Source: a virus (taxonomy: Duplodnaviria; Heunggongvirae; Uroviricota; Caudoviricetes). Taken from it: 64,000 nt of DNA. This document shows positions 24,675 through 34,987 of this stretch, one piece after another. The DNA is taken from the IMG/VR virus record IMGVR_UViG_3300021254_000022, positions 4,857 through 68,856 of that record; one strand, 5' to 3'. Each line of letters opens with the position of its first letter. Position 1 is the first letter of the stretch. The notes under the pieces were generated by a model. That model had not been told where the DNA came from. It did no database searches and was given only the letters and a program-made list of their open reading frames with translations. The position numbers and the translations under genes are program-made.

Positions 24675-25016
24675 ATGCGGCTAAAAATAGATGAAAAGAC
24701 TTATTTTGAACTTATAACTCAAAGTCTTTATCTACAAGCTCTTGAAGCCGGAGGCGTAGATAATTGGACCTGGTATAGTACAGCGATACAAGATTTTATT
24801 CAAATGGCTATTGATGAAGATCCTCATATGGAAGAATATTTTAGATTTCTGGGCAAGATTACTGAAGATGGATTACTTGATGATATTGACATAGAATGTC
24901 TTGCACAATATTATTTAGATATAGCTAAAGAAAATCAAAACCTTGAAAATGTTGAAGGTATTATAGAATATTGTTCAGAAAGAAGCAAATGGGAGGAAGA
25001 AAATGCCAGTACATGA
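24675..25016 (+). CDS. hypothetical acidic protein
   Basis: conserved promoter at ~24622, RBS aaggaaataaaatat + ATG 24675. Confidence 0.45.
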   Translation: MRLKIDEKTYFELITQSLYLQALEAGGVDNWTWYSTAIQDFIQMAIDEDPHMEEYFRFLGKITEDGLLDDIDIECLAQYYLDIAKENQNLENVEGIIEYCSERSKWEEENAST

Positions 25017-25797
25017 TGATCTTGGAAAACGGATGAAAGAAAATTATGAAAATGTTTCTAAAACTCGTCTCGTGCGGCGAATGCCTGTTGCGATTCGGAT
25101 TGATGGTAAGGCATTTCATACTTTCACTCGTGGATTTAAAAAGCCTTTTGATTGGATCTTAATTGAGAGTATGCAGGAAACTATGAAATATCTCTGTGAG
25201 AATATCCAGGGGTGTGTTTTCGGCTATACTCAATCTGATGAGATTACTTTAATTCTTGTTGACTATGACAAACTTGAAACTTGTGCTTGGTTTGATTATG
25301 AAGTCCAGAAGCTTTGTAGTATTGCTGCTTCTATGGCAACTATGAAGTTTAATAAGGTTTTTGATCAAAAAACTAATGATTATTGGTTCCCTCAGCGTTA
25401 CAATATTGCTGAAGTAAAAGTTGGAGAATATTGGAGTGCTTTAAGAAAATCTGCTGAAAAAGGCGCAATGTTTGATGCTCGTTGCTTTAATATTCCAAAA
25501 GAAGAAGTAACTAATCTCATCTACTGGCGTCAGCTTGATGCAACTCGAAACTCTATTCAGATGGTAGGGCAAGCGAATTTTTCTCATAAGCAGCTTCATG
25601 GCTTATCTTGTAACGATATTCAAAATAAACTGCTTACTGAGAAAAATATTAACTGGAATGACTTTCCTATCGTAGCAAAACGTGGTACTGCTGCGCTTAA
25701 AGGGAAAGATGGTTGGTATTTAGATAGTGAAATGCCTATTTTGAAAGGTGAAATGCGAGAGTATGTTGACCGTCTCATCTTTGTAGGAGAGACTTGA
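25003..25797 (+). CDS. Thg1-like protein (TLP; tRNA 5'-end 3'-5' nucleotidyltransferase/repair enzyme)
   Basis: RIDGKAFHTFTRGFKKPFD and GYTQSDEITL match Thg1/TLP catalytic motifs. Confidence 0.7.
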   Translation: MPVHDDLGKRMKENYENVSKTRLVRRMPVAIRIDGKAFHTFTRGFKKPFDWILIESMQETMKYLCENIQGCVFGYTQSDEITLILVDYDKLETCAWFDYEVQKLCSIAASMATMKFNKVFDQKTNDYWFPQRYNIAEVKVGEYWSALRKSAEKGAMFDARCFNIPKEEVTNLIYWRQLDATRNSIQMVGQANFSHKQLHGLSCNDIQNKLLTEKNINWNDFPIVAKRGTAALKGKDGWYLDSEMPILKGEMREYVDRLIFVGET

Positions 25798-25952
25798 CTT
25801 TGACTAAAAATTTTGATATAATTCCTATAGGAATTAGGGGGAACAATTAATAAACACACGCACAAAGAGAATAGACCAAGCATCTATTCTCTTTTTTTGA
25901 TTTTATTTTAAAATTATATTATAATTATTATATAGAAAGGGTGATATAATTA

Positions 25953-26372
25953 ATGAATGGGAATTGTCTTATAGCTTTAACAATCGCAAATAAATATCTT
26001 CCACCAAAAAAACTTGCTCATTCAATGAGAGTTGCTCAATATGCTATGGAAGATTATGATTACTTTGAATATCCTGGTATTGATAATTATGAAGATATAT
26101 TTGTTGTAGCTCTTTTACATGATGTTGTAGAAGATACAGAATGTACTTTTGAAGAACTTGAAGAAGCCGGATTACCTAAATACTTTATAAATTGGATAGC
26201 AGAACTCTCCAAAAGAGAAGGAGAAGAATATATGGATTACATTAAAAGAATCCATAGCCAAATGGGCTTAATTGTAAAAAGAGCCGATATGAAAGATCAT
26301 CTTCTCTTAACAGATACTTTAACAGACAAATTAAAAAATAAATATCTTCCTGCTATACCTTATATTTTGTGA
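25953..26372 (+). CDS. small HD-domain hydrolase of the RelA/SpoT type (small alarmone hydrolase-like)
   Basis: H...ALLHDVVEDT motif characteristic of the Rel/SpoT HD domain. Confidence 0.5.
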   Translation: MNGNCLIALTIANKYLPPKKLAHSMRVAQYAMEDYDYFEYPGIDNYEDIFVVALLHDVVEDTECTFEELEEAGLPKYFINWIAELSKREGEEYMDYIKRIHSQMGLIVKRADMKDHLLLTDTLTDKLKNKYLPAIPYIL

Positions 26373-27175
26373 AAAAGGAGTTGTTACTAATGATTAATAC
26401 TTGGGTTGTGACAGGTGATTGTCATGGAGATATGAGCCGTTTTGCTGAGTATAAATATCCTAGAGATGGAACTACAGCGGTGATTATCCTTGGTGATGCT
26501 GGTGTAAATTATTACATGAATAAGAGAGATACCAGTGCTAAAAAGAAACTTCAGAATAGTGGTTATCAATTTTATTTAGTTCGTGGCAATCATGAAGCAC
26601 GCCCAGAAGACTGTGAGGGAGTCGAGTGGGATTATGATGCAAACGTGGATGGAATTGTAGGAATTGATGCAAATTTTCCTGCCATTCATTATTTTCGTGA
26701 TGGCGGCGAGTATGTTATTGGTATTCATTCCTGTCTTGTCATTGGTGGAGCTTATTCTGTGGATAAGTATTACCGAATTGCTAGAGGATATCCATACCAA
26801 TGGTTCGAAAACGAACAATTAGACGCCAATGAAAGAGAAATAATTTTTAATAATATAAAAGATAAAGAATTTGATTTTGTTTTAACACATACTTGCCCAA
26901 GAGCCTGGGAGCCAGTTGATCTTTTTATTCCTGGTATGGATCAAAGCACAATAGATAAATCAACTGAAAATTGGCTTGATGATGTAAAATGTGCAATTAA
27001 ATATCATGTTTGGCTTTTTGGGCATTTTCATGCAGATCGCATTGAAAAATGGTATGTAGAACAGTTCTTCCAGAGAGATGATACTCTTGAAGATATCTGG
27101 GATAGATGGCAAAAAACAGATAAATCTATTGCTGAAAAATGGTTAATAGGAGGAGTACCTTATGAGAACATTTAA
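26369..27175 (+). CDS. calcineurin-like metallophosphoesterase
   Basis: GDCHGD ... GDAG ... GNHE motifs. Confidence 0.6.
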   Translation: MKKELLLMINTWVVTGDCHGDMSRFAEYKYPRDGTTAVIILGDAGVNYYMNKRDTSAKKKLQNSGYQFYLVRGNHEARPEDCEGVEWDYDANVDGIVGIDANFPAIHYFRDGGEYVIGIHSCLVIGGAYSVDKYYRIARGYPYQWFENEQLDANEREIIFNNIKDKEFDFVLTHTCPRAWEPVDLFIPGMDQSTIDKSTENWLDDVKCAIKYHVWLFGHFHADRIEKWYVEQFFQRDDTLEDIWDRWQKTDKSIAEKWLIGGVPYENI

Positions 27176-33708: not shown

Positions 33709-33720
33709 TAGGAGGATTAA

Positions 33721-34008
33721 ATGGCACGAGGAACGAGATCTTTTGAAACTCATGATTTTTATTGTATAAGATGTGGTCGCAAAGGTATCCCATGTCAGAG
33801 AAAGAAAGGACATCAGCATGGGAGAGGTCATTTTAAGAAACTCTTTTGCATATATTGTGGTGAAGAAATAAATCACTATGAATGTCGATCACTTGAAGAT
33901 GTAGAAAAGTTTAAAAAGAATTTTGAAAAAGGGGTGTATAAAGATGAAGCAGAAAACTCTCTTACTTATGTCAGGGCCGAGCGGAGCGGGAAAGTCTTAC
34001 TGGGTTAA
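33721..34008 (+). CDS. zinc-ribbon protein
   Basis: CxxC...CxxC pairs. Confidence 0.35.
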   Translation: MARGTRSFETHDFYCIRCGRKGIPCQRKKGHQHGRGHFKKLFCIYCGEEINHYECRSLEDVEKFKKNFEKGVYKDEAENSLTYVRAERSGKVLLG

Positions 34009-34435
34009 AAATTTTATAAAAAATCGTCCTAATGCTATTTGGGTATCAAGAGATGCTGTTCGTTTTTCTATGGTGTCTGAAGAAGAAGAATATTTCTCAA
34101 AAGAGAATGATGTTTTTAAAGAATGGATTCGACAGATCCAGGAAGCTCTCGATTCTGAAGGTGAAGGTTGGGTTATTGCAGATGCAACTCATTTAAATGA
34201 GCGCTCTCGTAATAAAACTCTTAATGCTCTTCATCTTGATCCTGATACTCAGATCATTCCTGTATTTTCTTATCCAGGAGTACAGAAATGTCTGGAAAAT
34301 AATGAGAAACGTAGTGGGCGCGCTTATGTGCCGCGTTCGGTCATTCGCCGGATGGCTATGAGCTATGAACCGCCTGCTGATGGAGAAAAATATAAATATT
34401 CTTCAATTCTTGAAATTGTAGAAAGAGGTGAATAA
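33944..34435 (+). CDS. polynucleotide 5'-kinase (T4 Pnk kinase-domain-like)
   Basis: GPSGAGKS P-loop; SRDAVR and ADATHLNERSR align with T4 Pnk NRDDYR / SDTNLNPERR. Confidence 0.65.
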   Translation: MKQKTLLLMSGPSGAGKSYWVKNFIKNRPNAIWVSRDAVRFSMVSEEEEYFSKENDVFKEWIRQIQEALDSEGEGWVIADATHLNERSRNKTLNALHLDPDTQIIPVFSYPGVQKCLENNEKRSGRAYVPRSVIRRMAMSYEPPADGEKYKYSSILEIVERGE

Positions 34436-34987
34436 ATGATTTGGTTTACTTCTGATACTCATTTTAATCATAATAAGGAATTCGTATGGAAGGTGCGTGG
34501 ATTCAACTCTTGTGATGAAATGAATGAATATATCGTGCGGCGTTGGAACGAGGTTGTACAGCCCGATGATGAAGTATATCATCTGGGTGATGTAATGCTT
34601 GGACCAGAAAATGGTATTCATTATCTTGAGCGTCTTGCAGGTCATATTCATATCATTGCAGGAAACCATGATACTGATAAGAGGATTGAAATGTACAAAA
34701 ATTGTTGGAACGTAGAAGATATACAGTGGGCGCTTCGGAAGAAGCTTGGTGGCTATCATTTTTACATGAGCCACTTTCCAACAATTACTTCCAATCTTGA
34801 AAAAGAAACACTGAGACAATGTACACTCAATCTTTTTGGACATACGCATCAAAAAACAAATTTTTATCTCGAATATCCTTTTATGTATCATGTTGGCATG
34901 GATTCTCATGGATGTGAGTTGGTATCTCTGGAACAGATCATTTATGATATGGAAAAAAAAGTAAAGGAGTGTAAAGATTTACTTTAA
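34436..34987 (+). CDS. metallophosphoesterase (candidate RNA 3'-phosphatase partner of the kinase)
   Basis: DTHFNH ... GDVM ... GNHD motifs; immediately downstream of the Pnk kinase. Confidence 0.5.
   Translation: MIWFTSDTHFNHNKEFVWKVRGFNSCDEMNEYIVRRWNEVVQPDDEVYHLGDVMLGPENGIHYLERLAGHIHIIAGNHDTDKRIEMYKNCWNVEDIQWALRKKLGGYHFYMSHFPTITSNLEKETLRQCTLNLFGHTHQKTNFYLEYPFMYHVGMDSHGCELVSLEQIIYDMEKKVKECKDLL

Follow-up and report, generated by a model that had tools for sequence, protein, structure and literature searches.

Genes for a probable RNA end-healing and sealing system in a large TAG-recoded phage of the human gut

Do the RNA-end enzymes encoded between positions 25003 and 34987 of a 64,000-nucleotide stretch of the tailed-phage record IMGVR_UViG_3300021254_000022 (positions 4,857 to 68,856 of that record; the whole stretch is referred to here as the window) form a single pathway for the repair of broken tRNA? 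An original prediction, made from the letters and open reading frames (ORFs) of this DNA, had proposed as much, listing a Thg1-like protein (TLP), an HD hydrolase, three calcineurin-like metallophosphoesterases (MPE1, MPE2 and MPE3), a DEDDh exonuclease, an RNA-ligase-like nucleotidyltransferase and a kinase of the T4 polynucleotide kinase (Pnk) type as one island directed against tRNA-targeting host defences. Such defences are widespread, with examples in PrrC/RloC, PARIS, retron effectors, Cas13 and toxSAS, and to our knowledge the kinase-phosphatase (Pnkp) and ligase Rnl1 of phage T4 are the sole proven RNA-repair system of a phage. All of the listed domains were found on the plus strand, in the place assigned to them, by Pfam, PHROG and Protein Data Bank (PDB) matches (Table 1), and every gene of the locus falls in an annotated PHROG family. 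The answer proposed here is nevertheless narrower than the question, in that a core of ligase, kinase and phosphoesterase probably heals and seals RNA ends, with the TLP and the HD hydrolase standing outside that core.

The evidence that carries this answer comes from a comparison with 82 related loci, comprising 80 loci on viral contigs and two related places, each with a 60-75% identical ligase and 10 kb of DNA to either side of it. These loci were searched with the window proteins by tblastn and one round of hidden Markov model (HMM) iteration, and the counts refer to genes within the fetched DNA. A kinase homologue is found less than 10 kb from the ligase in 71 of the 82, across three gene orders, whereas the gene set as a whole is not kept; co-occurrence in related phages, which had been suggested as a check, therefore supports the kinase-ligase linkage but not the complete island. 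In the first gene order (class A, 38 loci plus five variants) the ligase is followed by an RlaP-like Pol-beta nucleotidyltransferase and then by a kinase of 290-340 aa with a C-terminal HD domain, as detected by Pfam, the ORFs often overlapping. MPE1, MPE2, the Zn-ribbon gene and the exonuclease are all absent from the fetched DNA of class A, and no MPE3 adjoins its kinase. Class B (20 loci) has the order RlaP-like gene, MPE1, (exonuclease), ligase, then, after a gap of 1-8 kb, MPE2, Zn ribbon, short kinase and MPE3, and class C (eight loci and the window itself) is class B without RlaP. Only two blocks recur, namely MPE1-(exonuclease)-ligase and MPE2-Zn ribbon-kinase-MPE3.

It follows from the three architectures that in every case the kinase has a phosphoesterase fused to it or next to it, this being a fused HD domain in 43 relatives and an adjacent MPE3 in 28. 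Indeed, MPE3 adjoins the short kinase in 28 of 28 loci of classes B and C and never adjoins the long kinase::HD protein; it stands where other clades have the kinase-fused HD domain, and is evidently a non-orthologous replacement of the phosphoesterase. Cultured phages show similar couplings. In Bacillus phage Thrax1 a kinase::HD gene comes immediately after the ligase gene, upstream of which lies a phrog_388 nucleotidyltransferase, and mycobacteriophage Whirlwind encodes a T4-type kinase::HAD Pnkp 3 kb from a ligase of the same family.

On these grounds it is considered probable, at roughly 60%, that the core of the locus serves to heal and seal RNA ends, as a phage system derived from the ligase/RlaP/polynucleotide kinase-phosphoesterase operon of its relatives. 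The Pnk-like kinase would phosphorylate 5'-OH RNA ends, MPE3 and possibly also MPE2 would remove 2',3'-cyclic or 3'-phosphates, and the Rnl5-like ligase would then close the 3'-OH/5'-PO4 break so prepared, within a base-paired context. The exonuclease adjoining the ligase may trim 3' ends, and a Ro60-like ring protein encoded upstream probably binds damaged or misfolded RNA. As separate add-ons, the mobile TLP could rebuild tRNA 5' ends and the Aph1-like HD enzyme would hydrolyse the toxic alarmone (p)ppApp. The likely purpose would be to keep the translation apparatus, and tRNAs above all, working under RNase attack by the host or by competitors. Substrates, reaction order and biological target are what we infer from the observed family assignments, catalytic motifs, gene order, promoter structure and conservation; anticodon-nuclease-cut tRNAs, in particular, are suggested as substrates by the T4 precedent and by the nearby tRNA array. 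The heal-and-seal proposal is supported for the kinase, phosphoesterase and ligase, on the strength of the 82 loci and Thrax1, but not for the TLP and the HD hydrolase.

Table 1. Features of the window, with the number of the 82 related loci in which each gene was found and the matches that identify it (NDT, nucleoside 2-deoxyribosyltransferase; orf, other small gene).
Feature	Position	Strand	Loci (of 82)	Matches and remarks
Promoter sites, TTGATT-N17-TATAAT	9629, 15147, 18925, 24612, 25897, 27364, 32509, 35212, 39010, 49196, 51622, 57779	+		
Promoters inside region 24612..32537	24612, 25897, 27364, 32509	+		
Terminator hairpins preceding three of the four region promoters	25864-25894, 27332-27362, 32483-32510			
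Unit A	promoter 24612			T7 gp5.9-like RecBCD-inhibitor-domain protein, TLP
Unit B	promoter 25897			HD, MPE1, orf62
Unit C	promoter 27364			orf119, exonuclease, ligase, NDT, small ORFs, Band_7
Unit D	promoter 32509			orf124, MPE2, Zn ribbon, kinase, MPE3, orf70
Protein with T7 gp5.9-like RecBCD-inhibitor domain	24675..25016	+		PF25708 1.2e-9; phrog_6234 9e-11
TLP	25003..25797	+	16	PF04446 2.9e-30, 105 bits against a cut-off of 29; phrog_4717 1.6e-85
Small HD hydrolase, Aph1 family, 139 aa	25953..26372	+	5	Pfam HD 8e-5 (weak); 7SMG 9.4e-12
MPE1	26390..27175	+	31	PF00149 1.9e-11; phrog_1649
DEDDh 3'-5' exonuclease	27762..28574	+	18	RNase_T 1.5e-11, residues 4-165
ATP-dependent RNA ligase, Rnl5-like, 479 aa	28589..30028	+		phrog_968 'RNA ligase' 4.8e-61
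NDT	30025-30474		1	start overlaps ligase stop codon (ATGA)
Band_7			9	
MPE2, lambda-phosphatase/ApaH-type	32938..33708	+	27	1G5B 5.8e-7; phrog_246 4e-28; phrog_8238
Zn-ribbon protein, 95 aa, 2 x CxxC	33721..34008	+	25	phrog_1257 1.3e-8 ('ribosome associated inhibitor A; zinc finger')
Stand-alone P-loop Pnk-like kinase (Pnk/PSTK/KTI12 clade)	33944..34435	+	71 (family)	AAA_33 8.6e-17; phrog_505 'polynucleotide kinase' 7e-20
MPE3, YfcE/aq_1665-type	34436..34987	+	38	PF12850 1.5e-10; phrog_547 2.3e-44; 1XM7 3.7e-5
PIN-PhoH fusion	36016-37272		16	one in-frame TAG at 37042
RlaP-like Pol-beta nucleotidyltransferase (examples in relatives)	L024 11722-12549; L013 7504-8307; L034 6652-7449		67	phrog_388; PF10127 2e-4, just under cut-off
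Ro60-like (TROVE + vWA) protein	19036..20562	+	52	Pfam DUF2828 + DUF7788; phrog_850 'RNA-binding protein' 1.9e-122
Hairpin 5' of Ro60-like gene	18992-19010			CCTCTTGTCCAAGAGG
Replication module	39083-46073 and beyond			RNase H 41225-41764; LigA 44112-46073
tRNA genes (18)	338-18797	+		
tRNA-Met	1699-1774	+		
tRNA-His	3599-3673	+		
tRNA-Ile(UAU)	5705-5779	+		
AAA/nSTAND3-like ATPase	7437-8570			inside tRNA array
tRNA-Leu(UAG)	9706-9782	+		
tRNA(CUA), amber suppressor	15314-15403	+		
TAG codons, sense-read	21377, 22205, 22577, 22895, 30861, 37042, 37642			

The ligase is best called Rnl5-like, within a divergent phage subfamily (phrog_968), and would be of the nick-sealing type rather than an Rnl1 enzyme, the specialist for anticodon loops. 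Motif I (T187-x-K189-x-H191-G192), R232R233, E271, motif IV (E430-G-V-V) and motif V (K446/K448) can all be read in the protein; K189, H191, G192, R232, R233, E271, E430, G431, K446 and K448 are invariant in 32 homologues, and T187 is nearly so. The protein ends 49 aa past motif IV, that is, without a C-terminal domain, and this, together with the T-x-K-x-H-G form of motif I, the EGVV of motif IV and the motif V lysines, matches published DraRnl (PMC1807946). The N-terminal oligonucleotide/oligosaccharide-binding (OB) fold is indicated by PF21189 (PHA02142 OB fold; residues 9-102, E 1e-3, below cut-off), and homologues of the ligase carry PF09414. Foldseek with the full-length AlphaFold2 (AF2) model returned NgrRnl at the top (~1e-9) and T4 Rnl2 next, a result that, since the model is poor overall, is used only alongside the motif and HMM evidence. 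Compared with the Rnl5 enzymes DraRnl and NgrRnl, the ligase shares the N-terminal OB fold joined to a nucleotidyltransferase domain, T-x-K-x-H-G and EGVV, but is ~135 aa longer through insertions (479 as against ~340 aa), falls below the TIGR02306 cut-off and has no significant match among PDB sequences, whether searched as a single sequence or as a profile. The RNA-ligase-like nucleotidyltransferase that had been predicted is thus an Rnl5-like ligase with intact motifs.

The exonuclease ends 14 nt 5' of the ligase gene, and among the relatives that have it is directly 5' of the ligase in 15, with the two genes overlapping in one of the loci (L004). Its assignment as a DEDDh enzyme was borne out by the full-length RNase_T match and by a full set of motifs, FIDFEAT, YGNSDKDF and HNALEDA corresponding to Exo I (DxE), Exo II (D) and Exo III (H-x4-D). 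A C-terminal extension of ~90 aa (residues ~180-270) has no Pfam match.

With regard to the kinase, the motifs GPSGAGKS, SRDAVR and KRSGR align with GCPGSGKS, NRDDYR and KRGTK of T4 Pnk, which represent the P-loop (GxxGxGKS), the general-base Asp motif ((N/S)RD-x-x-R) and the lid Arg; the same motifs align with the Pnk proteins of Thrax1 and Whirlwind, identity among the three kinases over the catalytic motifs being 26-28%. Further matches were to T4 Pnk (5e-5), Pnkp1 (7e-3) and, in its N-terminal region, the bacterial Pnkp model TIGR04075 (9e-8). The start codon is taken as ATG 33944, in preference to TTG 33923 or ATG 33968; it retains the beta-strand ahead of the P-loop and has a Shine-Dalgarno sequence. 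MPE3 starts 1 nt past the kinase stop codon, so the predicted succession of a T4-Pnk-like kinase and a metallophosphoesterase is confirmed, with homology of the kinase to T4 Pnk. The accompanying comparison with bacterial Pnkp/Hen1 systems holds in part: the arrangement is indeed split, with the HD domain missing and MPE3 following the kinase, but no methyltransferase domain, of the Hen1 or any other kind, was detected by Pfam in the scanned ORFs between 18997 and 37272. Without Hen1, the likeness is limited to kinase plus metallophosphoesterase.

All three predicted metallophosphoesterases are intact by Pfam and by motif, with complete DxH, GD, GNH(E/D), H and GHxH motifs read in the translations. 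MPE1, which travels with the ligase block in classes B and C, had no match among PDB sequences. MPE2 is the first enzyme of the conserved MPE2-Zn ribbon-kinase-MPE3 block, and where present is always upstream of the Zn ribbon and kinase. Its motifs DLHG, GDMGDRG, GNHE and HGHT align to 1G5B and correspond to the metal and phosphate ligands (DxHG, GDxxDRG, GNHE and GHxH) of lambda phosphatase, to whose clade the phosphatase domain of Clostridium thermocellum Pnkp belongs, and both MPE2 and the kinase match PHROG families of kinase-phosphatase(-ligase) fusions. The Zn-ribbon gene overlaps the kinase start by 65 nt, and it is between MPE2 and the kinase that it is kept in the relatives.

The transcriptional layout of the region does not support a single island. 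The sequence TTGATT-N17-TATAAT occurs in 12 exact copies in the window against 0.13 expected, all on the plus strand and intergenic, and several of these lie directly 3' of a terminator hairpin. Four fall within the region and divide it into four promoter-terminator units (units A-D), with unrelated genes between the repair-type genes; the TLP, HD, NDT and Band_7 genes are, moreover, variable among relatives. Other copies stand before a pair of tRNA genes, the suppressor tRNA, the gene for the Ro60-like protein and gyrB, and the sequence looks like one phage promoter class that apparently serves the tRNAs, Ro60, the repair units and gyrB. Given one promoter class across the units, their genes are probably of one timing class, though not of one operon. 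The unrelated genes within the 10 kb comprise NDT, an SPFH/Band_7 membrane protein and several small ORFs, none of which is part of the proposed pathway; NDT, with its single occurrence among the relatives, is probably a recent insertion.

The TLP and Aph1-like hydrolase genes are most plausibly independent accessories, mobile and present as variable add-ons. The predicted Thg1-like protein was recovered by Pfam and by a full-length match to the TLP of B. thuringiensis (BtTLP, 4KGK; 2e-66), as against 1e-6 to 1e-7 for yeast and human Thg1, which places it with the bacterial templated-repair type. The catalytic motifs RIDGKAFH and QSDE align to BtTLP, with the metal-binding carboxylates present; the window protein differs in being phage-encoded and in having a 28-residue insertion (~127-154) between the aligned halves. 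Its probable activity is templated 3'-5' polymerisation that restores the 5' ends of tRNAs. The position of its gene varies among relatives, it sits amid unrelated genes in other phages, and no linkage to ligase or kinase was seen in Fusobacterium phage FNU3 or Bacillus phage FADO.

The HD protein, predicted to be of RelA/SpoT type, does resemble RelA/SpoT hydrolases and belongs more specifically to the Aph1 family: the alignment to 7SMG, Aph1 of a Bacteroides caccae prophage, covers residues 46-138 and includes LLHDVVEDT and the C-terminal ~50 residues (the Aph signature region), while matches to MESH1, Rel and SAH, and to RelA/SpoT models, are weaker. Both proteins consist of a single HD domain (139 and 149 aa) with the C-terminal Aph region; the window gene differs in that no MuF-Apk toxin or Tis1 gene adjoins it, in its location between the TLP and MPE1 genes, and in its rarity among the relatives. 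Aph1 is a small-molecule (p)ppApp hydrolase that confers immunity against (p)ppApp-synthesising toxins (PMC10083569). Removal of 3'-pyrophosphates from tRNA by the HD protein, which had also been suggested, would be pure inference.

Several observations weigh against the end-healing and sealing interpretation. The RlaP-like gene that accompanies the ligase in most relatives was not found in the window by tblastn, and is absent also from the closest relatives of the window. The ligase scores only 48.6 bits (5e-13) against TIGR02306 (DRB0094), where the cut-off is 151.15, and over model positions 8-177 only, and its AF2 model is poor, with a predicted local distance difference test (pLDDT) score of 59.5, the N-terminal 135 residues reaching ~80-90. 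What Rnl5 enzymes seal are nicks in duplexes, and what they do physiologically has been called 'uncharted' (PMC5397189); a break in an anticodon loop is not an obvious substrate for such an enzyme. The kinase is matched by models of PSTK and KTI12 at least as well as by those of Pnk, and it resembles T4 Pnk weakly; in the window, 4 kb separate the kinase block from the ligase, and the two belong to different transcription units. The nearest named families of MPE2 are ApaH and the protein phosphatases PrpA/B, and the metallophosphoesterases could act on nucleotides or proteins. Finally, neither the TLP nor the HD hydrolase has a conserved linkage to the ligase.

If these points are given their full weight, the region might be an ordinary stretch of early or middle accessory genes whose enzymes act separately, an account that is possible but unlikely. 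The metallophosphoesterases would then be phosphatases of proteins or of nucleotides (Ap4A, cyclic nucleotides), the kinase would act on a nucleotide or another small molecule, the HD protein on an alarmone and the exonuclease on DNA, with NDT serving nucleotide salvage. The four promoter/terminator units with unrelated genes between them, the variability of most members among relatives, the best named models of MPE2, the match of the exonuclease to a PHROG 'DNA polymerase exonuclease subunit' and the company of the TLP in other phages would all be expected. Such an account sits poorly, however, with kinase-ligase proximity that survives three gene orders, with a kinase that always has an HD, HAD or MPE phosphoesterase fused or abutting, and with the tight ligase/RlaP-like/kinase::HD operon of the relatives. 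The enzymes could instead serve the repair of DNA or RNA-DNA hybrid ends, the kinase and phosphoesterases cleaning damaged DNA ends, the ligase sealing nicks with ribonucleotide 3' ends and the exonuclease resecting. Deletion of DraRnl radiation-sensitises D. radiodurans, with nick sealing after irradiation having been proposed for the enzyme (PMC5397189); in a duplex, Rnl5 can connect the 3'-OH of RNA with the 5'-P of either DNA or RNA (PMC1807946); DNA is also a substrate of T4-type and HD-Pnk kinases (PMC6097658); and the region adjoins both a RecBCD-inhibitor-like gene and the replication module. This is nonetheless judged rather improbable, and RNA is favoured over DNA as the target. The partners in relatives are RNA-directed, being the Ro60-like protein and the RlaP-like nucleotidyltransferase (RlaP extends the 3' ends of RNA by nucleotides and has links to RNA ligases; PMC12776372), and Rnl5 enzymes need an RNA 3'-OH (PMC1807946, PMC4408790). 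Furthermore, the phage has its own replication enzymes in the form of NAD-dependent DNA ligase, RNase H, gyrase, DnaB and RecJ, and with LigA at hand a second ligase is not needed for replication.

Less probable again is that the sub-lineage of the window has rebuilt the ligase/RlaP/kinase::HD operon into a trim-and-rebuild form of tRNA repair, directed at defences that alter or shorten the ends of tRNA and not at those that cut the anticodon loop. The elements of such a system would be the lost RlaP, the exonuclease coupled to the ligase, the three metallophosphoesterases and Zn ribbon around a bare kinase, and the added TLP; its targets would be acceptor-stem nucleases and 3'-nucleotidyl or pyrophosphoryl transfer, in a phage lineage dependent on its own suppressor tRNA. 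The least probable of the accounts weighed here is maturation of the phage's own 18 tRNAs, the TLP adding or restoring G-1 on tRNA-His and the exonuclease trimming 3' trailers where the tRNA gene has no CCA of its own. A phage tRNA-His is present, 17 of the 18 tRNAs have no encoded CCA (the sole exception being tRNA-Leu(UAG)), and the repair units share one promoter class with the tRNA units. However, G-1 of the tRNA-His is already encoded, opposite C73, so that the TLP is not required to add it, and the TLP belongs with the bacterial enzymes of templated repair. A role for the TLP in editing the 5' ends of mismatched phage tRNAs, in the mitochondrial manner, was likewise rejected, as the 18 acceptor stems show no systematic 5' mismatches, the only unexpected one being A3xC70 in tRNA-Leu(UAG). 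Moreover, the kinase, phosphoesterases and ligase would be left unexplained. A C1xA72 mismatch in tRNA-Met is typical of a bacterial initiator tRNA.

Besides the kinase, the commonest neighbour of the ligase is a Ro60-like protein, whose gene lies outside the region that had been singled out and was not on the original list; it is less than 10 kb from the ligase in 52 of the 82 loci. Sequence searches of the PDB gave no match for this protein, and no relevant literature on DUF2828 was found. Foldseek with its AF2 model (pLDDT 68) returned Ro60, Rsr or TROVE structures as the top 12 PDB matches, including the Ro60 of a Thermus phage (9L5Y), in full-length alignments with template modelling (TM) scores of 0.4-0.5. 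The gene is directly 3' of tRNA-Cys(GCA), the last tRNA, and the conserved upstream tRNA-Cys looks ordinary. In comparison with Ro60/Rsr-Y RNA modules (bacterial rsr-yrlA-rtcB; Ro60 of Thermus phage phiLo), the TROVE + vWA fold and the company of tRNA genes and RNA-repair enzymes are alike, but no Y RNA or YrlA was detected near the gene, there being no Rfam match at E<=1. A hairpin, CCTCTTGTCCAAGAGG, lies in the upstream stretch 18725-19035, just 5' of the ribosome-binding site of the Ro60-like gene, and is conserved in three of the relatives (L009, L010 and L013).

Other neighbours may also bear on defence or on RNA. The gene for the protein with a T7 gp5.9-like RecBCD-inhibitor domain is the first of the TLP transcription unit and overlaps the TLP start; it was likewise missing from the original list, and is a real candidate for an anti-defence gene. 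The PIN-PhoH fusion gene is kept downstream of the kinase block in the 16 relatives that have it and, PIN being an RNase fold, its product could also act on RNA. The replication module 3' of the region encodes GyrB, RNase H, GyrA and LigA and, further on, a GIY-YIG protein, the SPbeta-like proteins YorF, YorH and YonG, DnaB and RecJ.

The source of the window (34% G+C) is a large human-gut phage of a very abundant, uncultured, TAG-recoded lineage. The window belongs to a human-metagenome scaffold of 184,958 bp (ENA ERZ28612963, scaffold_88), on which contig positions exceed window positions by 26,373. A megablast of the 10-kb region against 50,697 phage records revealed no near-identical cultured phage; the closest ligase homologues in cultured phages, at 48% identity, are in the large Bacillus siphophages PBC2, Thrax1 and Kirov, and homologue searches with the ligase and with the Ro60-like protein gave at least 8,000 matches each. 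The in-frame stops within both lysin genes, PIN-PhoH and orf182 are TAG in every case, and homologues have Gln at these positions in 14 of 16 and five of six instances; TAG is a sense codon in this phage. The repair-type genes contain no internal TAG, and their stop codons are all TAA or TGA. The amber suppressor tRNA(CUA) has a Gln-like acceptor (U1-A72, G2-C71, G3-C70, G73) yet a long variable arm, and has its acceptor and T arms in common with tRNA-Ile(UAU). The original prediction had set about 20 tRNA genes next to the region; in fact 18 were counted, of which the nearest lies 6.2 kb upstream.

A phage RNA-repair toolkit is, as a concept, already published. Jumbo-phage sets located beside tRNA arrays comprise ligases, Pnk, calcineurin-like and HD phosphoesterases, RlaP, TROVE and Thg1 (PMC7824862), and bacterial clusters of HD-Pnk and ligase are known (PMC6097658). 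Operons of RNA ligase, RlaP and polynucleotide kinase-phosphoesterase were described by Burroughs and Aravind and, so far as they are set out where that work is cited (PMC7824862, PMC12776372), the operon of class A relatives is precisely of this kind and includes the same ligase family; the window retains the ligase, the kinase and a phosphoesterase, and differs from the cited description in having no RlaP-like gene, an unfused kinase, an MPE in place of HD and units split by 4 kb. With T4 Pnkp and Rnl1, which repair PrrC-cut tRNA-Lys, the locus shares a phage 5' kinase, a 3' phosphoesterase and an ATP-dependent RNA ligase; however, the T4 phosphatase is an HAD domain fused to the kinase, whereas the candidates here are separate binuclear metallophosphoesterases, and the ligase is Rnl5-like, with its N-terminal OB fold, rather than Rnl1. 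Bacterial Pnkp/Hen1 (C. thermocellum) and Pnkp1-Rnl6-Hen1 also pair a P-loop kinase with a metallophosphoesterase of the lambda-phosphatase type, but have Hen1 and another ligase family; in the window the kinase, the metallophosphoesterases and the ligase are separate genes, not one kinase-phosphatase-ligase polypeptide. A parallel to class A and Thrax1 in joining kinase and HD phosphoesterase beside an ATP-dependent ligase is found in Runella slithyformis (PMC6097658), although the order there is HD-kinase as opposed to kinase-HD, and the window has MPE3 in the place of HD. What distinguishes the locus is a free-standing kinase with two metallophosphoesterases and a Zn ribbon on its flanks, the loss of RlaP, the coupling of an exonuclease to an Rnl5-like ligase, and its occurrence in an abundant TAG-recoded gut lineage.

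The relatives of this phage amount to a natural swap of the phosphoesterase, with HD, HAD and metallophosphoesterase domains exchanged around one kinase family and one ligase family. As such, the lineage is a convenient comparative set for asking which phosphoesterase heals 3' ends, and what role ligases of the Rnl5 type have in vivo.

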